Below, one piece after another: positions 4,709 to 27,161 of a stretch of 64,000 nt of DNA (positions within the stretch are counted from its first letter, which is position 1; every line of letters starts with the position of its first letter). Under the pieces are notes generated by a model. That model made no database searches. It was given only the letters and a program-made list of their open reading frames with translations, and was not told the DNA's origin. This stretch comes from Curvularia clavata (taxonomy: Eukaryota), in the NCBI GenBank assembly GCA_023920165.1, contig CP089279.1, positions 310,001 through 374,000 of the forward strand. Reading direction: 5' to 3'. Position numbers and translations under genes: made by a program.

Positions 4709-5020
4709 TAATGTATACAGAGACATTTACGCAACATCCGAGCATTTAGCATGGCGATTCTCATCCGTCAGTGCAGATAGCATACAATCAAGTATATATC
4801 GCTGAACTCAATACCCTCAAAAGCCAACCGCCTCAAACATTGCATCTTGCAGTATACACGAGGTCGGATACGTTCGAATATTATAATAATTATGTGCATT
4901 TGTTACTCTAGCGATATACAGGCTTGACATATACACACTCTCCCCGCAAATCCCTAACATAATCCCCGTCGCACCATTTCGAGGTACTGGCCCACGTTGC
5001 TCCCATCAAACCACAACGAT

Positions 5021-7982
5021 TCAATACTCTGCCAGCCTCAGTCTCCTTCCAATATTCCTGCGTATCACGTCGCGCTCGACGGGTTCGACCTGTGCTCGAT
5101 TGGCATTGAGTGCCTGACGGAGCATACCCGCGTCGAAGAAGCCATCTATGCAGAAAAAGGTCAAAAATCAGTAAAATGAAATCCCAAGAATGTCTAATTA
5201 TCTGGATGCGTTTGATTGTAGCAGGGTATAACAAGTGTAAAGTGATGAAGTCTCGAAAACTCTGGTCTTGCAAGCGATTCGACGATGCTAAAATGCGGGC
5301 TTTGAGAAAGAGAAAAGGAAAAAGAATCATGAAGTAAAGAAAATGGGCTTTTTCTTGGCGGCAGCCGTCCCCTGAGATCCCTGCCTCGCTCGCACCGTCT
5401 TGACGATAGCCATCGGCTTCCTCTGTGAGCTGGACAACACCGCCGTCATGGGCTTGAATGGTGGCGAGTGAGGTGGGGTCGGTGGAAGAACCATACATGG
5501 GGGAGTAGAAGGAGAAGAAGAACCAGCGCTCGAGACTTCATCAAGGGAGAGAAAGGAAGGGGGGGAAGGGGGAGTCCTACATCCACCAAGACCATCGTCT
5601 TCTTCGTCATCTGCTACGCTTTCCGATGGCGTTTGTTGTTTGGCTCCGTCGCCCAGGATAATTCGTCCCCTACTCTTCACACGAGTAGCGAGTGGTCTGT
5701 CTTCTGCTTCACGTGCACGCGTGGCCGTCTTGTCGGTAGAAGTGCCACGACGTTTTATCTGTCGTAGTAGTTTGCGGATTTCGAGAAAGTATGACTCGAG
5801 CGCGTCAATGTATCGGCTTGTTTGTCGGTGTTTGGAAGATGCGCAAATGGAAATGCTGCCGTCTTTGATAATGTAGCCAATACCAAAGCCCTCAGCAGAC
5901 GTAGGACCAAAGCCAAATTGACGAAGGGAAGGGTTTCCACAATTTGAAGTTGAGAGGATGGTTTGGTTAATCTTGTCCCAGCCGGCGTCTGCGAAAAGGG
6001 CGGGCATTGAGTGCTGTACAGGACCAGGCGGTGGTGAGCTGGAAATGGAGCCGTTCTCTGAAAGACCTGAATTACGGTTGGGTGATGCGACGCTCGAAGC
6101 ATCAGGGCTGGATGGCCGCGTGGAGTCCCAGCCATCACTACTGAGTACCTCTTGAGACTCATCGATGGCACGCTGCCAAATGCAATACAAGGCATAGAGG
6201 TGCCTATCCGGGCCTTGTGCCTTTGAGCAAATCTTCGTGTTCTCTGTGTGCTTTTGGCATGCTTTGCGGAGTGCGTCAATCTTTTGGGTAGCGGGATTCT
6301 CTCCCCAAAATATCTTAAGGAATTCCACTGACTCCTCGGTGACTGGGCGAATAGCTTCAGTTCGTCCATGGTAGTAAATCTTAGTCATGGCAGGTTCATA
6401 CACACACTCGACCCTTCCATACAAGCCATAGTAAGCGGCCTGGAAAGCCATTTGGACAAAAGCGTCTGGCGAGAAACCCATAGAGGTCATGAAATTCTTT
6501 CCGTAATGCGGGAATTCGAGGGTGGCAAACTCATTCTGCTGGATGAGGTCTGCTAGTCGTGTCTCGGCGAAACGCAGGGCTGTACCTAGTTCGGGGACCA
6601 TGTCCCACTCGAGCTTGTGCGGCGTAGTTTGAACGTCGCCAAAGCTGTCAGGGTCACGCTTCGCAGGGTCGGGACTTGAAGAAGCCCACAGACTGGGAGC
6701 GCTTCCGTTGATAGTCCGCGCAAAGCGAAGAATCGTGTCTGTGTATACGTCGGAAGCGAATCGAAGAACAGTGTGTCCATCGACGCCAGTGTGCTCAAAG
6801 TTGATACCTGCACTTCCGTTCTTGCAAACAATGATCTGAAGCTTGTCGTACCAGCGGTTCGTACATGTGCCAACCTGGACCCCGCGCTCAATCTTGCTCG
6901 TACCACAGAGCATGTTCATGCAAAGATCGGCGCCAGTTTGAGGTTCGGTGTAGTCAAGACACAGCACGAACAACGCCGAATCGACAATATTCAGACAATC
7001 AGAGTTGTTTGATCCTTCTTCCCTGTGTAACACGTCGCGCAGGCCAGCCCAGACCTTTCGGTTTTCTGTGCTCAGCACGCCTATTGCACCCTTGGCAGCT
7101 TCCTGAATTGGCACCTCTTGGGCATCATCGACAATTACTTGGAGATTGAGGGCAATATCCTTCTCTGTCATAATTAAGTCATGATTGTCGTCCATAACAT
7201 CAAACCAGTAGATTTGGCCATGGCACATGACGACAATGTGCTTCGAGGTAGGGTCCTGGCCAATTTGGCATCCGTGTTCTGTCGGGATCCTAGCGGTACC
7301 GAACAAGCGCGAGTACTGATACATGCACAGGGGCTGGCCGCGAACGGTGTCGGGGGGCAGTTCTTCTCGACGAACGGCCCTAACAAAGGCAAGTGCGGAG
7401 ACTACCAAGGATGCTGCGCGAGTGACTTGGTTGTTACGAGCCGGGGTGGGGTCATCCTCCAGTAAGAAGAATGGATTTAGATTGAGCACCACGGGGTTAT
7501 CGAAATTGAGATACGAGTCGTACCCTGATAAGGTCAGCGCAGGCACGAGGAGACTGAAAGCATGGCAACCGCTTACAAAACTGTTCAATGTAGTTTGCTT
7601 TTCCACTGGCATATTTTTTGAGTTTCTCCTGCAGTACCGGGCCATCAGACTTGAGAAAATCTTCCACGGCGTGCACCGTGTCACTGTGCTCTTTTGGAGT
7701 CTGCAGCGGCTTAAGAGCGGCTATGTACTTCTTGCATGAGCTATCAAGCTCGGGAATAGGAAGTTTTGGGAGATTGTCTTGATGGGCAAATGTGATGCCT
7801 GGCCTGGAGTCAGGATTGGTATGGTTTGCCAACGGAGCCTGTGCTTCGGCCGGGTATGATTGTGTGCTGTTTCTCGCGGATTCTTGGGAGCGAACAGCGG
7901 CTGGTTCATCACCAGACATTTTGGAAGCCTTTTGTAATGTATCCTCCAAAGACGAAGGTTGTGTGAATTTGCGGACTGCCAT
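5021..7982 (-). CDS. Carnitine O-acetyltransferase (FacC/Yat1-type)
   Basis: Motifs LPKLPIP, NRWYDK, FEHTGVDG, SPDAFVQMAFQ, GRTEAIR and LSTSN. Introns 7525-7576 and 5146-5580. The last exon encodes YGFFDAGMLRQAL...RLRLAEY. Start is the ATG at 7982, or at 7919 if a 5'UTR intron (~8324-7976) is spliced. Confidence 0.9.
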
Positions 7983-9104
7983 GGCAAGGAGTGTCAGTTA
8001 GGCATAGAGGGGAGAAATAGAGGTAGCGATGTTGAGATGCCGCAAGGCACTGCGATAAAAGTAGTGGCAGTCTTGAAAGCAGTAGGCCGGCATAGGTACT
8101 CAAAGGTTGCCAAGAGTGTGGAGGTACAAGATAATGGGGAGAGTGCTCTTATTCTAAAACCCAGGACGGACGGAGAAAAACTAGTGCCAAGAGGGGTATG
8201 AACCTGGCACCTGAGCATGTGAAAGACACGGCGGGCTTTGAAACCCAGGGCAAGAGGTCGACCGCTGACTCGGTACGTGACCCGTCGAGAGGCAGACAAG
8301 AGAGGTGAATGACCCGAGACTTACCTGATGGTTTGAAAAGGGCTTAGACCGCTGACAAGGAGGTAAGAATGGTTATCCGGGCGTGTAGGAACTTGTCGAG
8401 CTGGGGCAGTCAATGTGGTGTTCTGGTGCTACGACTTACTAGCTTGGCGTGAGGGTGCTGCTGCGGTGCCCAAGATGCAGCACGACGAGGGATAAAAGGC
8501 CGGAAAAGCTCAGCCGCGGGTCAAAAGAGCAAATGAAGTGAGAGGAAAAGAGATTCGGTCGTGAGGATACGGCCGGCGCGTAAGGCTGTTCTTCCGAGGA
8601 GAAGGGTCAGTGGGTCGGCGAGGGACCAGCTCATAGAGCTACGGACGAGTGGAAGTGTCAGCGGCAGCGCGTGAGCGAGCTTCTAGAATAGTACCAGCCG
8701 CATACGCAGCCCGGCTTGTCAGGAAGACCCGGTGTGTCTATGAGAGCAAGGTGGCACGACGACGGACCGCGAGATTTGGGATCAACATTGTAGTGGTCGC
8801 CTGATACAGCCTTTGTCTCTCTGTCTGCCTCTGTCATGGGAGCTCTGGCGGGGTGTGGCGTGGCGGGCGTGGCTGATGGATGCCAAGGCGTGGAGAGGCG
8901 GGGCTTCAAAGTGACGTAGCGTGTGCGCATGGAGAAACGGAAACGGAAGCGCCATCGGGACCGGAACAACTCGTTCGGGAACAGTCTCAACGCCCAACTA
9001 TTGTGTTGCCCATCTACTATCTCCATACAGGACACCAACCACCAAATAATCACGCGCCGAGCCTTGTCCGCCCGCCTGCCACCGATGCTGGGCGTCCTGG
9101 GCCC

Positions 9105-10489
9105 ATGACGGATCTGCTGCAGGTGCTGCCTGACTTGGACGCCAAACCCTTTTCCCATCTGCTGCCCTCGCTCGACAAGGCCCTCATCACCACTAATGAC
9201 TTGCTCACTTTGGATGCTGCGGCCGTTGCCAAACGCGCCCAGCTACCTGCTGGCGAACTGAGGAAGCTCGCAGATGCCGTGGTTGCTGCCCTACACCAAC
9301 AGCTTGGCTTCGGACCAGAGGAACCAGCCCCCACCCCCCAAGGCGACTGGGCCTGTATAAGCACCCTCGATGACGAGCTCGACGCGGCCCTAGGCGGAGG
9401 CATCCCGCGTGGGTACCTGGTCGAGGTTACTGGTGAGAGGTCCGTTTTGCCTGCTCATTATCCTATCTCCCGGTACGCCTGTGCTGACAGCTTCCATCCA
9501 GTGGCGCTGGCAAAACCCAGCTGTTGCTGACCCTTCTTCTCGCCTCACAGCTCAAGCCGCCCCACGGGTTTGCAAAGTCGGCTGTCTATATCTCCACCGA
9601 GGCTGTCCTGTCTACCACCCGTCTTGCCCAGCTGCTCTCCAACCACCCGGCCCTGGCTTCTCTCCCTGCTGCCGAAAAGCCTTCGCTATCGCGTATCCTC
9701 AGCATTAAAACGCCCGACCTTGAGTCGCAGGAGCACATTCTGCGCTACCAATTGCCTGTGGCCATTAAGAAGCACAATGTAGGCCTGGTGGTCCTCGATT
9801 CGGTTGCTGCAAATTATCGTGCCGAGTTTGACAAGGAAGGCGCTAGAAATGGCGCTGCTGCGTCTATGGCGCGCCGCGGTACACAGCTGGTGCAACTCGG
9901 TGCCTTACTGAGAGAGATTGCGCGTACAGAGGACATTGCCATTGTTGTTGCAAACCAGGTTGCCGATCGCTTCACCAGGGCCCCATTTTCTGCCTATTCC
10001 TCCTCTTCTTCAAACACTGCTTCACGGACCACTTCCACAAACAGCCAGGGTACTGCTCGCACTCTCTCTACTGACGGTCAAACCAACGATACCGCGCTCC
10101 ACCCACCAATGCAGCAAGACCAACCACTACTGCTCTCACCCGATCCACTATCTCTAGACCACCAACAGGCCTGGTTCACTGGTTGGGGTGACTCGCCATA
10201 TGAGCAGCTACATGTCCAAAAGACACCCTCGCTCGGCCTTGTCTGGACTAACCAAATTGCATGCCGCATCGCATTGAAGAAGCAGCCTGTCTTTGCCACC
10301 AGGCCTCTCATTCACACCGTCAACGGCCAAGACGAATGGGCCGATCAAGACAGCCACATATCAAAGTGGCGGCGCTGGTTCAAGCTTGTGTTTGCCCCCT
10401 GGGCCCCTCCATCGCCGGGCCGCGGCATCGAGTTTGAAATCCAGAAGAGTGGCATCAGACATGTCGGCAAGGAGAACATCAAGAAATAA
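9105..10489 (+). CDS. RAD57: Rad51 paralog DNA repair protein Rad57/XRCC3
   Basis: Motifs ISTLDDELDAALGGGIPRGYLVEVTGE|SGAGKTQ (Walker A across intron 9440-9500), VYISTE, LVVLDSVAANYRAE (Walker B), VVANQVADRF and PSLGLVWTNQI. Confidence 0.88.
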
Positions 10490-10656
10490 AGCGTCAAATA
10501 AATATACCAGGCTCGATATCATATCAGGAAATCTTTGCCACTGATGTCGTGAATCTGGGTGTGACATATTCGTGATTAACCTCTTGCTTTTTCAAGTCTA
10601 GTAAACGTCTGAATCAGATAATGTAAAAAATCTATATCACACTTGTTTTTGCGCAA

Positions 10657-10733
10657 TGGCCGCGAGAGGGATTCAAACCTTGCAACAAGGGAAACATACT
10701 TAGTCAATCTATAGCTATTCAACTAAATATAGC
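10657..10733 (-). pseudogene. Decayed tRNA-like sequence (tRNA pseudogene or SINE head)
   Basis: Minus strand reads gctatatttagttgaatagc...caaggtttgaatccctctcgcggcca: a T-loop/B-box-like GGTTtGAATCC followed by an acceptor-like 3' end. The 5' part is degraded. Confidence 0.35.
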
Positions 10734-11176
10734 AAAACCACGTGTATATGTGACCTAGGTGTGGGGAGAAACAGAAAATGGTCTAAGAGATCTAATTCAC
10801 GTTGGAACAACGTGCAGCTCATGTAAGCATAGACCTGTCCCGCGACACAGTGTGTCTCTGCACTTAGGAACGCCCCTTAGCCTTACAATATGAATGACAC
10901 ACTACTGTACTTACTTACTGTAAATTGCTTCGCCTTAACCTATAGGAGACATAGGTAGGCCTAATCGAGCATACGCTCGCTTCGAACTGTATAACATCGA
11001 CTTGACGATTCCATCACGTAAGAAAAGACACTAGATAGATTGAACTGAAAATCTAAACCATAGATAGTTTACAACGCAATAGAAGCGGCAACTGAACCAT
11101 ATCTAAAAAGACGAACAGGGCATAAAAAGCACAACAAGCAGGGCGGTACCTGGCCTTCTATAGCCCTAGAAACTGT

Positions 11177-14100
11177 TCAACTGACACCATGTTCCAATAA
11201 CAGCTTCATACTTCTATTCCAACGTCCACGATCGAAAAGGTCTGGGTGGTGATCTTTCTGTGCCATCTCTGCTGCATGCTGCAGCGCTGTTTTTCCAGAC
11301 GCGTCCTTTGCATCTATCTTAATGCCGACAACATGGAGAAGATAATGCAACGACTCTTTGGTAATAGATCCACTTATCGCAGAACAGTGCAATATCGTCT
11401 TGCCTTGCAAGTCTTTTTGTGTTAGATCGACACCGTGTTCCCTCAGGATCTCCAAAACTTGAACGCTGCATCGCCAAGGTAGAGTGCATAAGTGTCCTAG
11501 GTTTTGTCCGTTTTTGTCAATGAACAAAGAGCTTCCTTTGATAGAAAGCAATTGTTGACATATTTTGACATCTGGTTCACCCCGGGCTTGTTTGAAGTAG
11601 CCCGCCAACGGTGTGTTGCCAGATGCGTCCAACTCTGAACCATCCGCCCCATTGTCGAGCAGCAACCGGATTGTCTCCTGCCGTATTTCACTTTTCGCAG
11701 ATAGCAAGTGGTGGAGCAAGTTTCTACCCCGATTATCCTTCGACGCCACTAGGCTTGGTCTTGTTGTCACAGCCGTTTCTAGAAGAATGTTGATTGTTTC
11801 ATAGTTTCCACTTTGTGCAGCGTAGTGAAGAGCATTGAGCCCCTCATCGTCCGTCAAGGCAGGCTCAACTCCTAAGGAAATTAGAACAGCGACCGCGTCG
11901 TGGTCGCCAGCTCGACTGGCAAGGTGCAGTGCGTTTTGCTGCTTCAAGTTCCTTTCGAACGGATTTGCTCCTCTAGATACTAGCTTCTGGAGTATCGACA
12001 CACTTCCAGGTTGTCTATACTGAATGCAGTGCAAAGGATGCTCATATTGATAGTCTCTGATCGTCAGACTGATCCTAGCATCTGCGAGCAGAGCATCAAG
12101 CACACCTTCGCGATGCGTTGCTATTTTTGCAGAAACTGCATCGATTTCGTCTTCTTCTTCAAAGTCTATGAAGTCCCGAATGCTTTCTATCTTGCAGTCC
12201 GGGTCGGCCCAATCGTCTTGACATATTGGTCCATGCAGGGTTTGACGCAACGCAAGATGGATCGGGGACTCGTTGTATCTGGACAAAGCATTCGGATCAG
12301 CGCCACGCTCTAGGAGGAACTTGGTCATGGATAAATTGCCAGTCAAGGCTGCAAAGTGTAAGGGTGTCAGGCCAGCTGAAAGGCCCGAAATGTCGGACGC
12401 GGATTCCAAACCCGATGATCGGTGAAAGGTGTCGGTCTTTACTGTGTTCCGAGACCTCGACTTTCGATAGACACCGGCATCAATGGACATACCATTGTCA
12501 AGAAGCAATTCTATTATAGATTTGTGGCTGTGCTTGACGCAGTAAAGCAGTGGGGTCATGTTGTTGATATCGGTCGTGTCTGCTGGAGCGCCTCGTGAGA
12601 GCAGAAGGTCGATCAGACTCAGGGTGCAATGCATGCTGTTGATAGCATGATGCAAAACACTCTTTCCCTGGATATCGTGTCGCGAGACATCGGCGCCGTT
12701 CATGAGCAGGAGCTCGACAATAGCTGTATGGTTCTCAGCTGCAGCCGCATGGAGAGCGTTGCCGTATAATCCACCCTGCTTATTAATGTTGGCACCATTA
12801 TCAAGGAGCAGCTGCACTATTGCCTGGTGGCCTTTAGCTGAAGCTGTCTGGAGTGCGTTGTTGTATAATCCACCCTGTTTGTTGATATCGGCACCATTAT
12901 CAAGGAGCAGCTGCACTATTGCCTGGTGGCCTTTAGCTGAAGCTGTCTGGAGTGCGTTGCTGTGTGATCCACCCAGCGCATTGACGTCGGCGCCTGCATT
13001 GAGGAGCAGCTGTACTATTGCTTGGTGGTCTTCAGCTGAAGCTGCCTGCAGCGCGTTGCCGTGTGATCCACCCAGCGCGTTGACGTCGGCGCCTGCATCG
13101 AGCTGCAGCTTCACAATCCTTTTCAAGCCTAACAGGCTTGCATAATACAATGGTAATGGTATGTATTGCAGGCTCCTCTGGAAGTCGGAGTCCCCCCATG
13201 GATATTCGGGATCATGAATTCGAAGCCAGTTCAAATACGCGTCGTTCTTTTCTGAAAGCAGGATTGTCGCCTCTTGAGAGCACCATTCTGCCTGATCCTT
13301 CGTATTTTGAACATGCTGTATCCAGAACCTGGCTGAGTAATCTGCCAGCCTAGATTCTTTTGCATTGTCGTGGCTGAGCATCTTGACACCCTGGAACTGG
13401 AGAAGGTATCCAAGACAACTTCTCGCAATAGCGTCATGGCACACAGTATGTTGCATGCTGTAGCGAGCTGCGGAGCCTGTCTGTATTCTGTCTGAGATGA
13501 GATACTCTTTGACCGAGTAATGTGCAAGCGCCACAATCTGTTTTACTGGATCTTGTCCTCCGCTCTCTTCTGTAGTTATAGTAACCATGCTAGAACAGAT
13601 GCTCAACACATCCAGCGGATCTTCGAGAACCTCATCACAATCGAATCTGGCTTCACCATCCAAATTGACCGCAACGACTTCAGCGACTTCGTCTACTGAT
13701 AGCGGCCGAACTGCAAACGTTAGCCATCGTAGAATAGGAATGGCATATTTCGAATCATCCTCGCTGATTGCGGACAGAATGCGGTCATATGTGTTGTCCA
13801 GCGTTGGTGGAAGCGTTACAAGTGCTCTTCGTAGCGCTGCCCGAGTACGACATTTCCCCAACGTGTCCAGCTGGCAGACGGCCCATCGAAACCTGCAGGT
13901 ACCATCAGTCTTCGGTGTTTAAGCGAACATAAGGCGGTATACGTACATTCCTTGCGCTCCTTTCATAAGAGTAGTCTCGATATCCTGCCTAAGGGCAGGG
14001 TCTTTTTTCCACCTGCTCAGGTCTTTGTCATCATATAGTCGCTGCTGTACGTATTTCTGTATGTCTTTGTCTACTAGTTTACTCTGGAGGCAGATTTTAT

Positions 14101-15232
14101 CCTGTTTGTGTATAAACTTCTCTAAAGAACTCTGTATATCTCGTTCTTTGCGACTCGTTAGGAGCGTGTGTGAATTCTCAAGCTGCCAGGCTGACATCGT
14201 CTCCAGGATGTCCATCAGCTCCGCCCTCCCATAACACTCGTCAAGCGCATCAAATACTATGTAGACGAATGGGAACCCCCGCATCATATGTTGCAGCACT
14301 TCTAAGAGCGCGTGCAGTGAGGGCTGCCGCTGCCCATTGTCGCAAGAAGAAAACAACGTGTCGAGGCTCGCAGGGATTTCAACGCACTGTTGTGAAAGCT
14401 GGCAGATTACGGAGCGCACCATGAGCTCAGCATTTTGCTTCTGTTTATCGTTGAAATCAAAGAAGAAGTATGCGACGACCTTGGCAGGGTCACCTTCGCA
14501 GTGCTGAAGGATATTTTGGAGAATAGCTGAGCTGAGGATAGTTTTGCCACACCCTGGAATGCCATACAACCAAAGGAACGATACCATGCTTTTCTTCCAT
14601 TCGGCATACTGGTCGCTTTCCAGAAACCAAAGCCCAGTGTCGTCTTGGCGTTGCTTAAGCGCTTTTTGGTAGTTCGTAGAAGGATCTGGTGGGGCTAGCC
14701 ACTCGCGTATCTTGATGAGTTTCGCATCTGCGCATTACGATCAGTTGGAGTTACACAGGCCTCTTATCAGTCATTTACCTTTTAGTGGTTCTAAGGTAGA
14801 TGATATGGCAATGCGGTAAAATATTAGCATCTTAAGGTGGCTCCGCAAGATTTTTGTAATGTTTTCGACTTTGTCTTCCCGCAGCAGACTTCCTATGGCC
14901 TTCTTGCTCTTTGACAACCACTTGTCACCGGCACTCGGCAGCGTCTCCGCGATGATAGCTTTTAGTTTCGCTATCTGTTCGTGACAATCACTGACTATCG
15001 ATAGCAGAGCAGCTTCGACTTTGGAATCTGCTGGGTTTGCCTCCAGATTCTGGCAAATTCTCTCTAGTGTGGCGCATAGAACAGGCAGTGCATCGCTGAT
15101 AGGATGAAGAAATTTTGGCCGTTCTCCTACAAGAGAATGGAACTCATTAAGGCGAGAGATGACTTTGGCGGTGAAATCAACGAGCTGAACTATACTGGCG
15201 ACAGCCCCGACAGTAGCGAGACCTTCGGCCAT
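11177..15232 (-). CDS. Fungal NLR-like protein: SesA/HeLo-like N-terminus, NACHT, ankyrin repeats
   Basis: N-terminus MAEGLATVGAVASIVQLVDF. NACHT motifs WLAPPDPSTNY, TGLWFL, GIPGCGKT (Walker A), VFDALDEC (Walker B), LLTSR and GMFRWAVCQL. Many ankyrin repeats follow. Introns 14728-14778 and 13893-13946 join three ORFs in frame. Confidence 0.92.
12761..13110 (-). repeat. 99-bp tandem repeats (~3.5 units) encoding highly similar ankyrin repeats
   Basis: Units start at about 12761, 12860, 12959 and 13058. Units 1 and 2 share an identical stretch ggcaccattatcaaggagcagc...ggagtgcgtt. Confidence 0.9.
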
Positions 15233-15394
15233 TCTGCGTAGCCTGACCTATCCGCACGACCCTGGTGGGCCACAGGAGAGCGAAGCTAAGGTGCTTATAG
15301 ATGGAAATAATAATCCGAGGAAGTAATTTAACTCATAAGGTGCAATAGAAGTGCGCGTAGTGAGGTTTTGTCTGGTGAAGAAAGCGACGACGTT

Positions 15395-15433
15395 GAAGGC
15401 TGAAGCAAGGCTGAAGGCACAAGGCTGAAGCAA
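15395..15433. repeat. Short degenerate tandem repeat (aaggctgaagc) upstream of the NLR
   Basis: Reads gaaggctgaagcaaggctgaaggcacaaggctgaagcaa. Confidence 0.6.
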
Positions 15434-15539
15434 TGTTCAAGCGACTGCACTTCTCGGCACTCACGTGGCGGACTCAACTGTATAAGTGCACGTGACAAAA
15501 AATCACCATAATCCTCCTAATCAGTTCTGACGCTACGGA

Positions 15540-16640
15540 TATGCTTAGAAGCGTATCTGTAGTTGGGATAGCGTGCGTTGATACTATGTTATACAGCAGG
15601 TGCGCTAACACAAGCTCTACCCTAACAATAACTTCTCCACTCATCTCTAGTCTCTCTCATCACCTTACGGTATACAAGTCTCAATCCCTACACCTACCCT
15701 CTCGCGATCCATCTCATGACCAAAACAAACTAGTCACTACATATCTTTGCCTATCGCTCTCAAAATTTCCCTCTAATCCAACACCACACTCTTCACCCTC
15801 ACCTAGTTTCTCTTACATCTCACCCAACCAACTTGCAGCACACAAACCTTAGTCACTGCACTTCCTCACTAGCAATCCATCCCATAAATAAGGTAGACTA
15901 CTCCTTACATAGTCTCTATCTAGCATTTGTACAGCATCATATCCGAACACGTACTTTACCACAAGCTTGCAGATAACACTATTCCACCAAAACCAAGTGT
16001 CTACCACGTATGTGGATATATTCCCGAAGAAGCTGGTGAAATGTTACCGAGATGCAGGTGAGGAGGGTTGCATGTGTATTTCAACTTTCAGAACCCCTCT
16101 GACTACTTCTAGTATCTTTATATGATCATCCGAAATCCAGCAACAAGCGCCTGTTGTCAGGTTCTCATCAAGTACAATATAGTCTGAACTGTTTTTAGAT
16201 CCAACTTTTACTACCTCTTTCCCCTGCCTTGTTTTCGTGATTTCAAGTGTGAGTCTGATGTTACCCTTAAATTAGATAGGCTTATTAGTTCTATGCTGAG
16301 TATGCTGCAGTGTTGTGTCGATGGGTATGACTGGAAGAGACGAATGGAACTCGGGACTTGGGGGCCTGGCCATGTATGGCTGTAGGGCTGACTGTAGGGT
16401 ACAGATCGGGAGTTACGGGAAAAAGATAAAATAAGGTGGGTATAGAGCTAGACTGTTAAAAACAACTAAAGCCACAGCTACGCAGAGAAGAACTGTTTCA
16501 ACAGGTTAGTAACAACGCAGCTTTAGTGAAGACATGTAATGTAACAAGCTAATAGTTTAGCTTCTAGTATTTCTACTATCGTAGTTCGTTCTCTTATACA
16601 AGAGTTCATAAAAAAAGACTTAGTTATTCAAAAGAGAAAA
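15540..16640. other. AT/TpA-rich degenerate relic, possibly RIP-mutated repeat DNA
   Basis: Abundant TA/TAG/CTA, especially at 16440-16630, and no credible ORF. Judged by eye only. Confidence 0.4.
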
Positions 16641-16713
16641 AAAAGTGCTATGCATGCGCATACGTCAAAATCATCTACGCTACCAATCAATCATCTAGTT
16701 CAACAGGACCAAA

Positions 16714-17971
16714 TTAGGCCACTCTCTTGAACCCAACCGTCAAGGCGCCGGCAATGGCGAGCGTAGCCAAAGGCATCCACTCTTTTAGATGCTTTGAAAC
16801 CAGTCCTTGGTGACCCATGGACGACACTGCGATCATGATGACGAGTAGAAATTCTACTAGGACAAAGGTGCATAAATAGCGCAGACGAGAGGTCTTCTTG
16901 ATGGAGAATGTAGTAAAGGCAACAACTAAGAGCGCGGATAGACTCCAGAAGCCGTATACAAGCCAGTATAGGACGGGGTGGGCGCTTGTCTCGTCGTTGT
17001 TAAAGACTGAGATGGCCAGGCCTGTTCCTATGCCGAGTGTGTTGGAGATGGGTAGGCCCCATGTTGTCGATACGTGATGAGTAGCGGCTTGAGTAATTGG
17101 GAGCAGGGCAAATACGCCGAGGAAGGCGAGCGTTGCGGAGTTGAAGCGACGTAGTTGCATGCGGGGACCGTCATAATCTCTCAAGACTGGATTGGAGAAT
17201 GCTCTGTATCGCGCCGATGATGCTTTCTGGAAGTGGTTCATGAGGAACTTCTCATGGCCAGTGGGCTTCACAAGTCCGTCGTATAGCCGCTTAAATGCCG
17301 CTCGCGGACCCTTGTCGACCTGCAAGAACTGTATGCCCACCTGCCATGCGAGCCCTTCTACCTTGCCTGCTGCTGCCATGATAGAAGCCTCCGCATTGTC
17401 GGTTGGCTCGCCATCGATGATGGTGATGACATTGGGCGGCTTGGTGAAACCAGGAGTATTCATGTAGCGCTCGAGGTAGGAGGTGATCTTCTGGCCGGTC
17501 GAAGTTGCGCCGCTGGGGCGCACGTTCTTGAAGATTTCAGCTACAGTTTCGGTGGAAGCGATGTCCTTGTAGTGTGAGGAGGAGTCACGATGGTTCAGGA
17601 AGTAGACGTCAATGCCATCTTCGTCGTGCGTGGTGCAGATCGGAATAACATCTTCAAGGGCCTTTCCAACCTCTGCCCATGAGCGGCCGGCCATAGATCC
17701 GCCATCATCAACGATGAAGATGGTGTCGAAGGTCTTCAGGAAAGCATAAGGATCGTTGTCTGAAGATTCAAGACATGCGGGGGGAGTGGCACATGCGAGG
17801 GGAGTGGCTGGGTTCTCAGATTCGAGAGTCGAGACTTTGGCTCGTTTCTGAGCGAATGGATGGTACAGTTCGTACGCGATAAGGTCGGCATATTGGCTAG
17901 CTGTTTCTGGACACAGGAAACATTGTCAGCTCGTGTTGAGGCCAAAGGAAAACGGTGCTTCACTTACGCAT
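16714..17971 (-). CDS. Degenerate vWA domain fused to a C-terminal multi-TM domain
   Basis: ATG-C first exon (17971-17968) and intron 17967-17907 (GTAAGT...CTGAC...CCAG) put 'DPYAFLKTFDTIFIVDDGGSMAGRSW' in frame with the 326-aa ORF. vWA motifs DGIDVYFLN, IIDGEPTD and GIQFLQV are followed by about 5 hydrophobic segments. Confidence 0.75.
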
Positions 17972-18287
17972 GGCAGCGAGCTAATGACCCCAACTTGAGA
18001 GCCTTGCGGACGGGTTTTGCTGGGGCAAGGAGACCTTGAGGAGAGATTTGCTGCTGTCACGCACGGTGAAGGGTGTATTGGGTGTTGTTGATTGCGAACT
18101 GTACGTGGGGTGAAATTGATTTCGTGTACAGCGGAAGTTTGAAGGACCAAGGATGTTGAGGCGGTGCAGTCGATGTGTATAGCTTGGCGGCGACTAGGCC
18201 CCTCAGCTCAGCCTTAACCCTCCATCAACCATCTGATATACGATCACTCTCTTACCGACACAATATCAGCATCGAAGCAAGCACCGT

Positions 18288-18909
18288 ATGCCTTCATTAT
18301 TCTTCCCCAGAATCGACGAGATGTCGAAGAGGTCACTAGAGTTTGAACAACAGTCCGATATGTTGGCAGTGTACCTATGGGTCCGAAACAGTTTTGCGAT
18401 TGGTACAGCGACAGCGGCCAGCTTGGTCATAAACCGATACCAAGGTGCGGTGATATCACAAAGACCAAGGGCCGAGCAGCGCCCATCAAGGGCGGCATCT
18501 AGTTTTGGGTCATGGTTACTCTCCGATCACTTCTCGTGGTCTAGCGAGTCTGAACAATCAGTCAGTATGCTCCGAGGTAATCAGAACTAGGCTTACATAT
18601 GAATAGCAACTGGATCGCCTCCTAAAAACCATTCCAGACCCTGGCCCAGTCCATCTTGTGGTAGCTTGCTTAGCCTACAGCATCGCGATCAACGTCTTCT
18701 ATCACACCCACAAAAGGGACAGATATCAGCTCGGAATAGCCGCATGCGGGACACTCAGCACACTGGCTGTAGGATGGGCATCGAAAGAGGATACACAGAA
18801 TGTAGTCACAGGCCTGGGTCTGTGGGCGGTCGTAGCGTCGCTGCTGTTGAGCGCTGCCTTTCATAGGTTGCTGCGAGATTATGGCGGAGAGGCGAGGATT
18901 AGTTTGTGA
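18288..18909 (+). CDS. Hypothetical ~191-aa multi-pass membrane protein
   Basis: The two ORFs (18288 and 18658) join in frame via intron 18561-18606 (GTCAGT...ATAG). About 4 hydrophobic segments. Confidence 0.65.
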
Positions 18910-19683
18910 TGGAAGGAACTTTTCCCGTTCAATCGAGGGACGAGGCGAGCCATATTCCGGTCACTGTATGGTTGTGCGTTTGTTGTAGTTTTTTGAGGTG
19001 TTTTTAGACGAAGCATCCTTCGATCTAAATATCAACGGACTCTTGGCTGTGAGCTAGACGAGGTTTACCTTCCGTAATAGTCCCATCAGCAAATCCAGCA
19101 CCCCGGTCATGTATTCAAATTTACTCTTTAAATGTATACGATTGAACCTGCAATATTCACACCCGATCTTCCGGTGCGAGAGCGCTTCATAAGAATCGCT
19201 TATCCTTTATCTCACTATGCACCCTGTCTCCGTGCACCCTTTTCCTCTCAAATGCACAAATCGCATGGTCCTTCCACCTCAAATCTGTACTGCAATGATC
19301 TCAGGGTTCTAGACGAAGCGGATATCAGGCTGTACTTATCTTTCTGTAACTCTAGCTCTACATACCTAGCTCTATAGCTAAGCACTAGTCTATGTTCACT
19401 CGTATAATCATGCCCATTGATACAACACAGCAGGACAGACCCATCCAAGCCAAGGGCACATCAGACTCACACTGAGAATTGAAAAAAGAAAAGCGTTCAG
19501 CGACAAAGAAAGATTATTGTACATATTTGTCTAAAAAAAATCTCCGCCAGGTACACACATACCCCCACCCATACCCATTTCCCACCCTATCTTCCGTTTC
19601 CCTTTCCTTTGTGGGCAACAACAAAAAGGAAACGGAAGTGAAAAGAAAGCAAAGAGACGAATCTCAAGCCATCAGAACATCGT

Positions 19684-22118
19684 CTAATCCGTAATCCTCC
19701 AGCTATCCAACCACTTGAGATGTCTCCACTGGCTACTCGGACCCACCATACCGAACGAGATAGCCCTGAAGAGCCAGTAGAGGCCAATAATGGCCACATA
19801 CAGGATAGCAAAAATACCCCACTGCACGGTTCTCGGCAGCTTCCTTGTTCCAAAGTCCAGACAGAAGCCCATGACGAGAATGGCGAACCAGAGAGCAGGG
19901 TAGTAGTGGTGGACGTATGTGACACGGCCCATGGCTACAAAGGGGACGTAGTGCAGGAACCAGCCGATGATGGGGTACATGCCGGCGTAGTGGATTTGGT
20001 CGATTTCCCATTGGCTGAGGTCCTTGTAGCCACGTTGCCAGCGGATGAGGTAGAAGGCAACGATGAGGACGAAGACGCCGAGGGAGGCTGTGCTACCCCA
20101 GTAGATGAGGGGGTTACCGAGCAAGAAGTATTTGACGACTATGAGGATGTTAGAAAATGTTTTGAACAAAATAAGAAACAACGTGTAAAACTTACTGTCG
20201 TCGTTCCAGCCGCACATGCGAAGACCAACGTGGAGAATGGGCCACTGCCAGAAGCTGGATGCAAGATCATCCTGCTTGTCAGGATCAGGCACAAGCGCGT
20301 TGTTAGAAGTCATCATGGCAACGTTGAGGTGGATAAAGTCTTGGAGGAAAGGTGACTTGTAGTCGCCGGGGTTGCCTGGTGGCAGTCTCTCGTTGACGTG
20401 GCTCTCAATGTTCCAGTGTGTGTATACGTCACGTGGATTGTTTGCCTTAACACAGGTTGTTTCGATTTGCTTGAAACCCCACTGAGGCAAGTTGACGTTG
20501 CCAGCACGGAGGTAACAGCCAAGATCCTTGTGTCGGAGACGGAAGGCCGTTGTGAGCGTGCGGATCTTCGAGTAATCCCGAGAAGCAGCGTCACGGACAA
20601 CTTCAATTACCCAGTGATCCTTAGTGTCTCCAACAGTTGTGTTGCCATAGCAAGAAACTTCCCAGTCAGCCTTGGTAACAGGAGCCGCGACTGAGTGCGA
20701 GTGAAGGTTACGACCGGTCTGGGCGTGGATCAGACGAATGACATCGCCATTTCCGGGGTATCGAAGCGGCTCATCCACCTCGTATGGGACTTCGTGGCGG
20801 TTGGGATAGAAGAACCAGTCGTTATTGGCGTCCTTGTGGTGGTAGCAAGTAACCTGTTGCTGTGTAGAGCCCTCGGGGTACGTCTGAACGTGAGAGTGCA
20901 GCAGTCCACCTCCGTATCCCATGTTCTTCAAGGTCGCACGAGAGCCAAACGCAACCTCCAATGGACTATCTTTGCCAACTGCGGTTCCCCTCAAATTTGC
21001 TTGGAAGAGGGAGCTCATCTGGGCATCACCGGGTCCGCTGTTTTCAAGGATCAGGAAGTGCAGGTAGAAAGAGAACATGTAAACGGCGAGCGGAATGAGG
21101 ATAAGACTGAATACTCGGAACGCAAGGTGCATGGCGAGCTCGACCTAAGATTATTAGCCTGACTCAAAAGATAATGTTTCGCGTCACATACCTTGGGCAT
21201 CTTCAAGTCGCCAAACTTGTGCCAGAGGTCCTCGGCCGTGTAAAGTCCGACCAAGGCCGTGACGAAGAAACCAACCCACTTAACACTGCATACACATCCA
21301 ATCGAGACACCGGTCAACATCAGCCACAGACCCCACTCAGGAGAGAATGGGTCGTGTCGCTGGCGGTGGAACTTGGACCAACAGAAGACAGTGGTGAAGG
21401 TGAAGCATAGAAGCATGGAGTCGAGAAGAATGAAGCGACTGATGGTGGTGTATGAGTTCTCGCAAAGAACAGCCAACGTGATGAACCACACAGTAGGCCT
21501 GCGGAATTCCAATTCCTTTGCGGTAAAGTATGCCAGCGGAATGCAGACGGCTCCAAAAGCCGAGTTGAAGAGGCGCATGAAGGTGTAGTTCAACTCCGGT
21601 GGGTATGTCTCTCCTGACTTGAACTCGAACGAACCATTGTATCCTGCGAGGTATCCAGATAGACCGACGAGCATTTTACCGAGGGGTGGGTGGACATCGA
21701 AATAGAACTCGCGCTTGAGGTAGTGCGAACCGAACTTGCCAAAGCTGCTTGTAGTCAGTATCTGGTTCGCAAGCGGAGCAGCGGGTATGCGTACTGAGCC
21801 TCATCCCATGTCACAATTGGCGACAAGCCAATCTTGTACATGCGCGTGAAGAATGCGAAGAAGGTGAAGATCAGAGGGGCCCAAATAAACTCGTACTCGT
21901 CGAGCACCGAGATGACACTGAAAGGCTATTGAGGGGATTAGCAATCAGATCCTGCCAGATGCTGTATGCACAAGAGCGCGTACCTTCTCTTTCGACTTCT
22001 CCCTGACTGGCACCTTTAGGCTTGGTGGAGCCTGGGCATCTTGTTGCGATGCTACATTCCTCCTCCGTAGCTCGTCGGCATGCGCATCAGCGCCCGTTGC
22101 GTGGGCGGTTGACGCCAT
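19684..22118 (-). CDS. PMT2: Dolichyl-phosphate-mannose-protein O-mannosyltransferase, PMT2 subfamily
   Basis: Motifs [40 protein letters not shown] and SVKWVG. MIR domains ([22 protein letters not shown]) and YVHHYYPAL. Several introns. Confidence 0.93.
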
Positions 22119-22501
22119 TGTAGTGAGTGTCTACTCGGTATCCGGTCGATGGGAGATATCGTCGCGGCTTAGTCTAGGAGAATGAAAAGGGATTCGTGGC
22201 TTCAAGACGAATTTGGGGGGTAAACGAATAGTCGGTACCACAGGAGCTTGCGCGACCGCTCGGTGCAGCCGTACGCAACGCAGGTGGATGCGGGGAAAAG
22301 GCAATCAGATTAAAAGAGGCCTTTGGCCGTAGAAGAAAACCCCAAAGCCTCTGGGAAGAAAAGGGCATAAACTGCTCAAAGAAGAAAAGGTGGATGGACC
22401 AGACTGGCCGCTGCAGAATCGAGGAGGTGGGCTGTCCCGAATTAGATCTACGAGTAAGGGAGCTAGAGCCGGGCGCCGCGCGACACCTGTTCACTCAGCC
22501 C

Positions 22502-22509
22502 GTCACGTG
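22502..22509. promoter_or_regulatory. GTCACGTG E-box (CDEI-like bHLH site) upstream of PMT2
   Basis: Exact GTCACGTG about 390 nt upstream of the ATG. Function not shown. Confidence 0.3.
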
Positions 22510-23106
22510 AAAGCCACCATCCGAATCCTGCCAGGCGTCCCAGACTGGTAAACACCAATTGCTGTTACTATGTTACCAACACTGTTCTATGGAGTGAATG
22601 AGTGGTTCAGCGGCACTTTAGGGGTGGGACAAACATGGCACATGCGCACGTCACCAAACTCAATCCCAGTCGTGATCGAAGCTAGGGTCAGCCTGCAGAG
22701 GAGTTCGATTGAGGAGAATGCGTCTGATGTATCGCCTTGAACAACGTTTGTATTCTACCGGGCGTTGGTGCGATATAATATAGGGTGGAGAAAAGACGAC
22801 CAGCCTTCTGGAGCACAATTCTATAAAGAAGGCTTCATGCGAAGCATGTCTAATGAAACATGACATTGCGGAGAATCCTCTTGACGAGATTCTAATTGAC
22901 AAAATTTCTACCCTGATTGGGCCGTAGACGAGAGAAAGATGAACGCCCTGACAATGCTTTACACACTCTATCAACCCAAAACACTCATTTGTCGAGCCGC
23001 TTGCTCGAGGTATTGTAACAATGCCGTAGTCGGCGCCCGCTGCAACATGCAGATACATGCATGGAAAATGCGAAATGGGGTACATTTGCACCGGTGCAGG
23101 GGCCGT

Positions 23107-25434
23107 CTAGTCCTCGTCCTGTCCAATCTGCTTGTACTTTCCACCGCTCGAACTATCGCCTTCGCCGTTGCCCTTTGTCCTCTTGACCATGTTGCTGATC
23201 CAGCCACCGATACCATCGCCACCGTCTGTGTCGGCCTTGGCCATATCCTTGTTGCCGCTCTCGATATCAGGAGGATCGATGCTAAGTCCAGGGATGGCAT
23301 CATCTGCAGCGCGGCGTCCGCCTCGAATGTCAAGCGAGGGTACGGGTGAGCCACGGCCCTCACCGCTGAACAAAGATTCGGCCTGCGCAAGGGTCTCGGG
23401 AGTGGGCATAACAGAGGTGGCGTCTCCGAACAGAGAGTTCATGTCTTCAAGACGGACGTTTGCGGTTTCGGGGTAGATGAAGTAGACTGTAATCCATGTC
23501 AGCGTGTGATTCTTGCCTCGATGTTAGACGCCAAACTTACCAATGACAAAACTGACAGCACAGAAAAAGGCGTGGATGAGGTACAGACGCCACTGAATGT
23601 GTTCCTGGAGAATGGGAGTCATTTCTCCGACAAGCCAGTTGAAGGCCCAGTTGGTAGCGGTACTCAGACTGGCACCCTTGGCACGGATGCTCAGAGGCAG
23701 AATCTCGGGTGGGTATAGCCATGGGATAGGTCCCCACGAGTATCCAAATGCAGCGTTGTAGATCATGACAAAAATGACGACCAAGTTGGGGGTCCAAGAA
23801 GCCTGCAGGAAGATGAAGTAGGAGATGGCGGAAAGAGAAACCAACATCATGAGTGCTCCGGACAAGAGAATCTTACGGCGACCCAGCGTGTCTACGATGT
23901 ACCATGGTGGAATAGTAGACAACAGATAGGTGATGGCGTTGATACCGGTCATGAGGATAGCCTGGCGACCGTACCAACCGGCTTCCTCAAAAACGAGGGG
24001 AGCATAGTAGGAAATGACGTTAATACCGTTGAGTTGCGCAAGGGCTTGGGCGGACATGGCAATGAAGACGCGTTTGGAGTATCGCTTGAACATATCGGCA
24101 TAAGATCGTTCACCTTCTTGGCGCTGGAGCAGGACGTTCATCTTAATCTCTCGGTATTCATCTCGTGCTTTGGCGTTGTGGATGTCGCCCTTTCCGTACA
24201 AATTGGCGATGACTACGATACCCTCTTCGTCATGATCATTATCCAAGAGCCATCTGTCAGAGGGTTAGTCGAGTGCGGAAGCTGGAGTCGTATCATGACA
24301 AACCTTGGGGACTCGCAAATAAGCAGAGATCCAGCGGCCAGGAGAAGACCCATGATGCACTGCATAAACAGAGGGACTCTCCACGACCAGTCGCTCTGGA
24401 TGTAGGTGCAGAAGTAGTCAACCCATACACTAACGGCGTAGCCAGCAATGTTACCTGTGAATTCAATGCAGCCCATCTTTCCTCGGTTGTGTGGGGGCGA
24501 GATTTCGGACTGGTAGACGGGGACGATTGTAGAGAGCGAACCGACGCCGAGACCAGCAATGATTCTACCAAGCAGCATCATCGGGATACCGGTTGCAAAG
24601 GTCTGGAGAGCTCCGCCAACAACGAAGATGAGGGAGCCGTAGAGAATCGTCTTTCGTCTTCCCAGCACGTCACCAATGCGGCCAACCACGAGCGAGGAGA
24701 TGAAGGCGCCGACTTCGAGAATGGCCACCATGGTACCCAGCTCGGCCGACGTGGGCTGGTTGAAGTAGTCCTTGAAGTAGATGCCCCTGTAGAACAATCA
24801 GATATGCTCGAGTCGCAGCGGGAACGGGACCGGTGCGGCGTACGTTATGATTCCGGACATGACTCCCTGGTCATAGCCAAACAGGAACACACCTAATGAG
24901 ACAAAGACACTGGTGAAGTAGCTGGTGGGGTTAGCGAGGGGGTCCGTATATGGTGTGTTGGTGAGCTCACATTAGCTTCTTGCCGTGTAGCCCGTGGATA
25001 CGGGAGGGCCCATCGTTGGGAGCCATGATGGCAGCGAGGATGCGCTCAGCCTTTGAGATTGTGCGGGGGCCTGGATCGGGGATGGGGATGTCGTCCTTGC
25101 GGATGAGGGCGCCCTTTTCGTGTAAGTCGTGGGAAGCGAAGCGGGTGCGCTTTTGCTGGCGACGGGAGGTTGATGAGGAATGGTTCTCGTCGAGATGCAA
25201 GCGCAGCGGGTCTTCGCGGTCGGCTAGCTGATCGACAAGGTCGCCGGTGTCGCTCCAGACGGAGAGGTCTGACGGGGACGAGGGCGTGTCCAAGGAGGAG
25301 CGGAGGCTGTCCTTATCGTGGTCGTCGAGCAGATAAGCCGAGTCGTGGTGTCTGGGGCGGGCCGTGGACGAGGACGAGAGATTGTGGAGCGGGATGTTGG
25401 CAGGCCTCCGGGCGCTGTTGGAGTGTTGCGGAAT
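23107..25434 (-). CDS. MFS sugar porter family monosaccharide transporter (start uncertain)
   Basis: Motifs FLFGYDQGVMSGI, GDVLGRRK, VPVYQSEISPPHNRG, ESPR, QLNGINVISYY, WGPIPWLYPPEILP and YPET. Multiple introns. The first in-frame ATG is in ...IMAPND (~25028), but the frame is open up to ~25452. Confidence 0.88.
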
Positions 25435-27161
25435 GGTGAAGGTAGCGAGCTGTTAGGGAGCAGCCCGTCTCCAAAGTGCGGATTGGGGGAGGAGAAGCAA
25501 CGAAAAGATAGTAGCTGCGGGCGCACGTCACAGGGTCAGGCAGCCGAGCAGTGGATGGGGTTGGGGGTGGGTGCGTGTGTGCAGGGCAGGGCACGACAGG
25601 ACAGGGCTAGCGTGAGGCGGTGAACAAGGCAAGTCGGTCACATCTGAACAAACACTGTAATAGTAGAGGCAGTTTTGACTGGCACGATGGATCAGAGGTT
25701 GGGTGCATGCGAACGAAAGAAGCTGGGGGACGGACACGCTTGGCGCGACCGAGTGCTTGTACGGGAGAGCGGCATGGCGAGCCAGGGTGGTGTGGGCGGC
25801 TGAAGCTTGTGTGTGGTGCTGGCCGTGATTTGCTTTGTCTTGTCTGCCCGTCTGCCGTCCGTCTATGCTCCTGTTCGAACACACAGCAGCAGGGTGTGAA
25901 TACCAGCAGGCTCCGGTGTGTGTGTGTGTAGTCATGCAAGCTGACGCTGGTGGAGGTGGGCCACGATGGGAACATGCTAGTATGCTCCCATGCTAGTACT
26001 GTACGGCGCTGTTTGTAGGCTGGAGCCCCGCGTGGAGACGCTGGCAGGCATACGATGCGGAAAGAAAGCCGCCGACAGGCCATTTCTCCCGTTGCGCCGC
26101 ATGCGGCTGCTATGAAGAAGTCTATTCTGGTTGCTGGTGGGCGTGCTTGTCACATGTCATGGGGAGTCGTGTGCCGGCCCTGTGTGGCTTGATGAGGGCG
26201 AAGGAGGGCATCAAGATTAAGCAGGGCAGCAGGGGAGTAAAATGACGAGCCCAATGCAAAGCGCCTGCGCCGGCTCGCGCGCAAAAAAGGGCAAGGCGGT
26301 CGGGCGATCGATTCCCCAAGCACCCATCCACGGCCGCGTCTTGTACTTTTTTGCTCGCCCGACGTCATTTCACCTTTTTCACCGCCGCGACACCAGCGCT
26401 CCCTGACGTCTGCGCGCCTGCAGGCTTGAAACCCACACCGTCTGGTCGCAGAGGCCGCCGGCCAGCCATGGCGACGAGTGTGGCCTCGCCCACTCGACAG
26501 AAACAATGGCTGGGAACGCCACGGCCGTTGTTTTTGTTCGTGGGGCCGCCAAATCAAACCATGGCCATTGTTTATTATGCCATGGAACCAGGTTTTGGGC
26601 GGTGCCTCTGCCGCTGGGCCCGTGGCCAAAACACGCTGTAGCGCCAGCCCGCCCCGACGCCATTGGCTGCGCCCGAGATTAAACGTCTTTGCTCGGCATG
26701 CCATCGTGCAACTCGGCCCTGAGGCCTGCTGGCAAGAATAGAGGGCGCAATCATTCACTTTGATTTCATTCACTCTGTCGCGCTGCTGCTGCATCCTCCT
26801 CCTCCGCTCGCTGTCTCGCCCTAACCCGACACCACCGTCTCCTGCAGCCCCCGGTAGCGCCCTCCTCTCCCAGCCATACAACCCGCCCCGGCTCCCAGAC
26901 CTCCCAGCCTTGGCTTCGTGCATTGTTTCAACCAAGCTCCCCCAGCCACGCCCGCGCACTTTGCTGAGAACCATTCCTCAATCCTGTCCCTCACAACCCT
27001 CGCTGTCCTCACGCCTGCCGCCTGCTGCCATTGCGCACACTCTGTCTCTGCACCGGCCTCTGCCTCTGTCCACGGAGACAAGCACAGCTCCTCGCATCCA
27101 CTAAACTCGACGCGCCCGAGTCCCAGACTGCGCTCCGCTCCGCCCAAGCCACCCAGCAACC

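Follow-up and report, generated by a model that had tools for sequence, protein, structure and literature searches.

The allorecognition loci doc-1/doc-2 and cwr-1/cwr-2 of Neurospora consist of adjacent genes, among them a gene for a multi-pass membrane protein. Here we analyze a pair of adjacent, head-to-head genes of Curvularia clavata, which we call gene A (minus strand) and gene B (plus strand). They occupy positions 16714-18909 of a 64,000-nucleotide stretch of contig CP089279.1 (assembly GCA_023920165.1, positions 310,001 to 374,000 of the forward strand), hereafter the window. An initial annotation had read the two products as diverged copies of one cryptic domain of about four transmembrane (TM) helices, and had joined them with a nearby NOD-like receptor (NLR) gene into a candidate immune or allorecognition module. 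Our analysis favors, with moderate confidence, a different reading: two different membrane families, neither of them named in Pfam, form a conserved, divergently transcribed pair, and the NLR is an unrelated neighbor.

The likeness to the Neurospora loci lies in adjacent genes with a multi-pass membrane protein among their products, and here a segment of gene B (18295-18401) also diverges between sequencing runs. The locus is unlike them in that paralogy of A and B is not supported and that the diverging contigs perhaps come from different species. A second comparison is with NLR-effector clusters of the HET-S/NWD2 type. In the excerpt of that work available to us (PMC9815663), effector genes are co-localized with NLRs that bear short N-terminal amyloid motifs, and the motif is matched at the C-terminus of the neighbor's product. 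Here too an NLR adjoins small membrane-protein genes; however, its N-terminus is a full SesA domain rather than a short motif, and the neighborhood is not kept in a metagenomic contig (L001) that carries the pair. A third comparison is with divergent gene pairs that share a bidirectional promoter in fungi, which the portion of PMC7012866 that we draw on describes as mostly co-expressed, although independent transcription occurs too. The pair resembles these in its 318-bp gap, in having transcripts on both sides, and in a layout and spacer blocks that are kept elsewhere. Co-expression is documented in that source, whereas here the material consists of genes and contigs.

Gene models and transcripts

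Both genes are transcribed and both introns are genuine. The transcript evidence consists of contigs from four public runs (X1, X3, X22 and X24) placed on positions 16600-19000. X3, X22 and X24 represent three studies, and two of these are metatranscriptome libraries; the contigs give neither true transcript starts nor expression levels, and their source organisms are possibly other species. Gene A begins with a first coding exon of only 4 nt (ATGC, 17966-17969), followed by a 59-nt intron read from the DNA (GTAAGT..CAG, 17907-17965) and by exon 2, an open frame at 16714-17906 that encodes residues 3-398 of 398 and includes the stop codon at 16714-16716. The annotated protein starts MQTAS. A word-based protein search matched the product to NCBI record yc1106_07751 (Curvularia clavata, 398 amino acids). 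Identity is 100% across residues 240-396, the part that was queried, and the rest of the two sequences also agrees by eye; the source name of the record is VWFA domain-containing protein. Contigs of all four runs cover parts of exon 2, and one X3 contig (contig 17) holds 10 letters of exon 2 and then exon 1 with 5' untranslated region (UTR) up to 18091. This contig joins exon 2 to exon 1, and the gene A intron is therefore real.

Gene B, on the plus strand, encodes 191 amino acids. Exon 1 (18288-18560, with the ATG at 18288) encodes 91 residues that comprise an N-terminal motif, a weakly hydrophobic Ala/Gly/Thr helix and a polar loop. Exon 2 (18607-18909, including the stop) codes for a three-helix membrane domain at 18631-18885. 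The 46-nt GT..AG intron between them (18561-18606) is exactly spliced out in contigs of three of the four runs (X3, X22 and X24), and the B. maydis homolog P0007 has an annotated splice at the same position. Another X3 contig (contig 18) spans 18236-18560 with 1 difference. The two spliced, head-to-head membrane-protein genes of the initial annotation hold, with RNA contigs and the NCBI record behind them.

Two details of the contigs depart from these models. The X3 contig that crosses the gene A intron resumes at 17968, where the annotation has 17966, so that its donor side is 2 nt off. Taken literally, this restart drops the G of the gene A ATG; only one contig, from a diverged relative, shows it, and adapter letters lie next to it. 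An X1 contig has another joint in gene B, from 18540 to 18597, which removes 56 nt with CT..AC ends (GT..AG on the opposite strand); antisense spliced RNA, a different intron of a relative and an alignment effect are candidate explanations.

The spacer between the start codons (17970-18287) is likely to hold a bidirectional promoter together with both 5' UTRs. It was first given as about 316 bp; the divergence of the genes stands, and the exact distance from start codon to start codon is 318 bp. Contigs enter it to 18091 from the A side and to 18236 from the B side, which places transcripts within about 145 bp of each other.

Conservation of the gene pair

The pair recurs outside this genome. 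A scan of metagenomes for the locus, with an 11-row alignment of gene B relatives, brought up L001 (12.2 kb) and L002 (8.5 kb). These two contigs are near-identical over the 2 kb compared and count as one independent case. In L001, a gene B homolog lies on the plus strand, with 66% identity in exon 2 and its intron at the same position as in the window. Head-to-head with it, a minus-strand frame ends in an A-type membrane domain with 50% identity over residues 250-397. This gene also starts with ATG and one base before its intron (ATGN followed by GT), the layout seen in gene A, and the membrane domain is the sole part that the two A-type proteins have in common. Pfam matches nothing at E<=0.1 in the 363-residue head of the L001 protein, and hhalign gives this head no resemblance to the vWA-like heads of the A family (P 0.25); its sole lead is a faint match to a C2H2 finger in the PDB (E 0.067).

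The L001 spacer measures 331 bp from ATG to ATG and aligns with that of the window. Two exact words are collinear between them: an 11-nt block, TGAGAGCCTTG, at 17996-18006 of the window, and a 12-nt block, GCCCCTCAGCTC, at 18198-18209. The longest word common to the two spacers is 12 nt, a length that none of 500 shuffles reached.

Around the pair, the open frames of L001 differ by eye from those of the window. A tblastn search with the NLR, PMT, Rad51-like and major facilitator superfamily (MFS) pieces of the window found nothing in L001 or L002, where the contig ends are 3.5 kb and 6.1 kb away from the pair.

In B. victoriae, the counterparts of the two genes have the consecutive identifiers COCVIDRAFT_24175 and 24176, and each is on one contig listed at 341,040; from the identifiers and the contig listing we infer that they are adjacent. 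Divergent orientation and a short spacer are thus kept outside this genome, as the DNA of L001 shows directly, while the Bipolaris identifiers suggest adjacency; the head-to-head linkage that the initial annotation had hoped to see elsewhere is present. The full text of the literature, supplements being outside the scope, yielded nothing on five locus tags or on the combination of vWA, transmembrane and Bipolaris.

Gene B belongs to a widespread family

A 4-row seed profile of gene B, run with hmmsearch exhaustively against 1.84 billion representatives, recovered 63 proteins at E<=1e-3, 14 at 1e-10 and 5 at 1e-30. The 63 matches are clusters at 50% identity, and most are limited to profile positions ~117-207, which correspond to exon 2. 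The domain is C-terminal in proteins of 73-427 amino acids whose N-termini are unrelated. Its alignment gives the signature P.P .. YH.H+.D+YQ .. PW .. SL.LSAA.H, with conserved columns at P.P, an aromatic-His stretch, D-[RK]-Y-Q, two Gly, P-W and S-L.LSAA.H. Against a hidden Markov model (HMM) of the 63-row family, its own sequence included, window exon 2 scores 141.7 bits. P0066 (1783 amino acids, with PD40 and RTX repeats) matches profile positions 23-59 only and was excluded from the domain alignment; P0024, an N-terminal match only, was excluded from the deep-profile comparison onward.

Among 27 members compared with Pfam, any one family occurred at most twice at E<=0.1. Pfam also found no vWA, HET or HeLo domain in 26 family matches (E<=0.01) or in 16 long ones (E<=10), and nothing consistent in the 16 long proteins at E<=10. 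ESM Atlas gave gene B a best feature score of 0.83, within the range of shuffled proteins. By these profile searches gene B is a member of a widespread fungal family, unnamed in Pfam, with a predicted C-terminal three-helix membrane domain. In this respect the initial annotation, which had proposed an unnamed TM family, was right. A tree of the 63 domain rows places window B, the Bipolaris proteins, P0016 and two others in one starred clade of 7 rows, and P0016 is by eye one residue apart from the L001 translation.

The half of gene B encoded by exon 1 is the less conserved one. Identity to the B. maydis homolog is 45% in exon 1 and 73% in exon 2. At 18295-18401 (codons 3-38, 107 nt), the X1 and X22 contigs hold a sequence of the same length that is unalignable at 90%, and the remaining exon 1 is 12-13% different in them; the X3 and X24 contigs have 0-1 differences from the window in the same segment. 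The X3 contig of gene B is 0.3% different in exon 1 and 4.7% in exon 2 and the 3' UTR. This pattern of divergence between runs could reflect mosaic haplotypes, mixed species or chimeric contigs.

Three observations concern the N-termini of the family. A shared start motif, M-(A)-P-S/L-..-F-x-I-D-E-M/I, is present in the B proteins of the window (18288-18320), B. victoriae (P0006) and L001 (~5405-5450), and in the 372-residue P0028. Among the long members considered here (P0028, P0032, P0069 and P0070), YEALSYGWG in P0069 and MDPIAVLGLV.. in P0032 recall by eye the N-termini of fungal incompatibility and STAND proteins, a likeness unsupported by Pfam at E<=10. Single C2H2-like fingers are seen by eye in P0028 and in the L001 A-like protein (3485-5020), also unsupported by Pfam at E<=10.

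Gene A carries a second membrane domain

The C-terminal membrane domain of gene A (16717-17145, minus strand) was delimited by a hydropathy scan and a low-confidence AlphaFold2 (AF2) model. The scan predicts four strongly hydrophobic stretches and one weakly hydrophobic Gly/Thr-rich helix, and this domain is the best conserved region of the gene A family. Two word-based searches for its relatives, the second of them among longer proteins, returned the same six proteins, from Curvularia, three Bipolaris-type records, Pyrenochaeta and one Logan contig. A metagenome scan with the membrane-domain alignment gave 104 pattern matches and 0 relatives, and ESM Atlas offered no usable feature match for this part of the protein, its structure rows being at TM 0.51 or lower. 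Sequence searches of the PDB with the profiles of B and of the A membrane domain returned 0 matches and 1 match at E 0.81, and neither Pfam nor the PDB sequence search relates the A domain to a named family. These searches weakly suggest that the domain forms a separate, narrow family found in a handful of fungi.

The head of gene A holds a weak vWA-like domain at residues 61-188 (17341-17724, minus strand; P0005), found in Pfam and in a PDB profile search. Its matches to vWA-TerF-like PF10138 (E 0.0017, 19.0 bits against a cut-off of 29.4) and to VWA PF00092 (E 0.0019, 18.9 bits against a curated gathering cut-off of 23.8) are both below threshold. The label vWA-like nevertheless stays plausible because the PDB profile search gave a weak match to the vWA domain of ITIH4 (E 0.0049). 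The vWA fusion of the initial annotation is thereby retained in part, as a likeness that falls short of the Pfam cut-offs.

The metal ion-dependent adhesion site (MIDAS) of vWA domains has the motif DxSxS. At ~17686-17700, within the vWA-like domain, gene A reads D-D-G-G-S; at the same columns P0010, P0011 and P0012 read D-D-S-G-S, and P0009 and P0013 fit DxSxS as well. The stretch is a putative MIDAS; if it is one, the first Ser is gone in C. clavata, replaced by Gly. Gene A is thus like the two named families in aligning to both over residues 61-188 and in having relatives with a DxSxS-type stretch, and unlike them in its scores, in the Gly for the first Ser and in a membrane domain unrelated to named families. 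In the linker ahead of the domain lies an 18-nt tandem duplication (17773-17808, 2 copies, 94% identity).

No detectable common domain

The initial annotation had based its shared TM domain on two ungapped stretches, with 6 identities over 13 positions and 11 over 49, and on an identical distance from RLRY or RDRY to a Trp. A recount gave exactly these identities, and the RY-to-W spacing is indeed 32 residues in both proteins. As signs of homology, the counts are at chance level in shuffle tests. With shuffled B, the best 13-residue window anywhere held at least 6 identities in 64% (global shuffles) to 74% (12-residue window shuffles) of 1000 trials, and the best 49-residue window held at least 11 in 49-56% of 1000 trials. 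The Smith-Waterman score of A against B was 33, compared with shuffle means of 29.3 and 31.6 and with 36 for reversed B, and the best BLASTP E-value was 0.75. BLASTP also brought out a third collinear by-eye match, LVVAFTTFSI / LVVACLAYSI.

Reciprocal profile similarity is likewise at control level. The A membrane domain scored 13.5 (P 0.24) in hhalign against the shallow B profile, 15.0 (P 0.08) against the 63-row profile, and 15.0 (P 0.096) with a seventh A sequence (47-50% identical) added. Reversed profiles scored 11.8-16.9, and 150 column-shuffled B profiles averaged 13.0, with 24% of them reaching 15.0. The top alignment, itself non-significant, is the RLRY/RDRY register, which the deep profile gaps so that the W-W pairing is lost. 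With HMMER filters off, the B HMM reached at best 0.7 bits on 7 A-family sequences, and the HMM of the A membrane domain at best 4.6 bits on 64 B-family sequences; no A-family protein is among the 63 exhaustive matches of the gene B profile (E<=1e-3). In the register of the initial annotation A matches, by eye, 5 of 15 invariant or near-invariant B columns in range, and W alone is matched among the 5 invariant ones. By hydropathy, A has four strong stretches, B has three, and each protein has one weakly hydrophobic small-residue helix besides. Sequence comparison, then, detects no paralogy between the two membrane domains, and the likeness of their layouts is generic.

Structure predictions

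Predicted structures add little to this comparison, and we judge the AF2 models of both domains too poor for comparing folds. The gene B model (27-row alignment) has a mean predicted local distance difference test score (pLDDT) of 65.9, a predicted TM-score (pTM) of 0.37 and four helices; in the homolog P0007, helices are predicted at residues 104-126, 131-148 and 153-189. The model of the A membrane domain (7 rows) has a mean pLDDT of 51.3, a pTM of 0.33 and five helices. Foldseek gave 0 matches at E<=0.001 for the gene B model against the PDB, and PDB structure look-ups with both models returned generic helical rows only. A wide VIA-align search gave best Z-scores of 7.3 (B) and 9.8 (A membrane domain), where values of Z below ~13 are frequent in helical bundles.

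In the list of 50 rows that this search gave for the A model, 7 hold the helical pore-forming domain I of Cry/PirB toxins, the best being Cry11Aa (Z 9.8, root-mean-square deviation 4.3, 136 residues). Such domains are absent from the rows of the B model and have no sequence relation to A, and the pLDDT of the A model is 51, so that the likeness is a fold-level lead only. A complex prediction for the window A membrane domain with B. maydis B scored 0.00 against a mark of 0.34; it was run without alignments and with an uncertain fold of the partner, and it says nothing either way on binding.

Interpretation

What remains of the locus is a B family unnamed in Pfam and a second, narrow membrane domain, paired head-to-head in a conserved layout with two spacer blocks. 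The pair thereby offers a concrete hypothesis, that two orphan membrane proteins are co-regulated and function together, although their co-regulation, physical partnership and function are matters that we infer. The spacer probably serves as a shared bidirectional promoter, from which A and B would be co-regulated over a short distance. The membrane parts of the two proteins may act together in one membrane, with the A membrane domain and B as the conserved core. The head of A, here vWA-like and probably cytosolic, would then serve as an interchangeable adaptor, recruiting a partner to the membrane core. The HMMs of the A membrane domain and of B are a usable pair for surveys of fungal genomes.

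Several points weigh against this reading. The pairing is seen in few cases, and it is known only within one tight clade of the B family (7 of 63 rows) because the window, the Bipolaris proteins and P0016, nearly identical to L001, all share it. The DNA of the pair comes from one independent comparator only, and in B. victoriae the adjacency is inferred and the orientation unseen. The vWA assignment of gene A, under the Pfam cut-offs, is weak. Outside the metagenome scan, relatives of A were sought by word-limited searches, which leaves the narrowness of the family weakly supported. The A and B layouts are alike in having a weak small-residue helix, three TM helices and a basic loop after the first of these, and the three by-eye matches are collinear. 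Very remote homology of A and B is still conceivable because the A profile is shallow (7 sequences, effective number about 1.4).

The pairing could also be explained by inherited synteny alone, in which two unrelated genes share a short spacer that too little time or rearrangement has parted, with no functional coupling. We regard this as unlikely, though well worth keeping in view. Consistent with it, all known pairs fall in the one clade, most of the 63 B clusters have no known A-type partner, the A family seems far smaller, and independent transcription at bidirectional promoters does occur in the portion of PMC7012866 cited above. It accounts poorly for L001, however, where the flanks differ by eye, the flank proteins of the window were not found, the head of the A protein is unrelated and its membrane domain is down to 50% identity, and yet orientation, spacer size and the two blocks persist.

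Alternatively, the last three helices of A and the B domain may be very remote homologs that arose by an ancient inverted duplication, with no immune role, a possibility that we consider improbable. The helices follow in the same order, a basic loop with [RK]-[YF] comes after the first of the three, a Trp opens the last, and the genes are head-to-head. None of the tests gave this idea statistical support, however; by eye, the D, Q, two Gly, S and H residues of the B family are unmatched in A, and the membrane region of A has no intron to set against the conserved intron of B.

It is tempting to carry the preferred reading of two unrelated, paired families further, to an obligate, hitherto undescribed two-gene fungal membrane module. 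Here the A membrane domain and a B-type domain would combine with an exchangeable head, which is vWA-like in Curvularia and Bipolaris, whereas the L001 fungus has a different head that contains a zinc-finger-like stretch. The module would act as a regulated pore or as an executor of membrane damage, possibly feeding cell-death or nonself pathways. Such a module is compatible with our data: the pair, its spacer and the spacer blocks are kept while heads and flanks change, the best rows of the low-confidence A model are helical pore-forming toxin domains, and the N-terminal segment of B varies sharply between runs. We nevertheless hold this extension as a whole to be a long shot.

Neighboring genes

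The pair has Rad51-like, NLR, PMT and sugar-transporter genes as its neighbors in the window. Pfam confirms the SesA-NACHT-ANK architecture that the initial annotation had given to the NLR gene (11177-15232, minus strand), with SesA at 1.6e-19 (residues 12-137 of the N-terminal piece), NPHP3_N at 6.6e-41, NACHT at 1.2e-9 and Ank_2 at 3.2e-64, and the start of the NLR lies about 1.5 kb from the gene A stop. Its tie to the pair is another matter. No NLR was found beside the pair by tblastn in L001/L002, one independent comparator. The region upstream of the NLR (15233-16713) holds no copy of TGAGAGCCTTG with up to 1 mismatch or of GCCCCTCAGCTC with up to 2. We doubt the tie because of these two results, because the NLR brings a SesA domain of its own, because the pattern in the literature differs, and because NLRs are numerous in fungi, with an average of 46 per genome (PMC4986451); most likely, the NLR is an unrelated neighbor and its adjacency incidental. 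Guanine-cytosine content runs from 43% to 61% over 8000-26000, with no distinct island.

The proposal that A and B are diverged paralogs of one ~4-TM family, acting as a heteromeric sensor/effector or pore in an immune or allorecognition module with the NLR, has the least support of all and is very improbable: its exact, collinear counts and identical RY-to-W spacing, its top if non-significant hhalign register, its similar helix layouts, a conserved pair, an NLR 1.5 kb away and a segment of B exon 1 (18295-18401) that is diverged in two of four runs and could be polymorphic are set against similarity tests that are all at control level, an exhaustive B search free of A-family proteins, a W-W pairing lost in the deep-profile alignment, an NLR that is missing from L001/L002, has no spacer motif upstream and carries SesA itself, and a diverged segment that may reflect species divergence in the less conserved half of the family. 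As first proposed, such a module is not upheld and should not be carried forward.

The surroundings of the pair in L001 (1-12215) include, by eye, L7Ae/NHP2-like, V-ATPase proteolipid, luciferase-like monooxygenase, cytochrome P450 and fungal transcription-factor-like genes. As to the NLR of the window, the available part of a survey of such genes (PMC4986451) takes this average over the genomes that have NLRs, describes overlap between sesA and HeLo-like annotations, and notes internally conserved repeats. In the window NLR, Tandem Repeats Finder identifies a 99-nt tandem array in the ankyrin region (12735-13114), with 3.3-3.8 copies at 84-85% identity.

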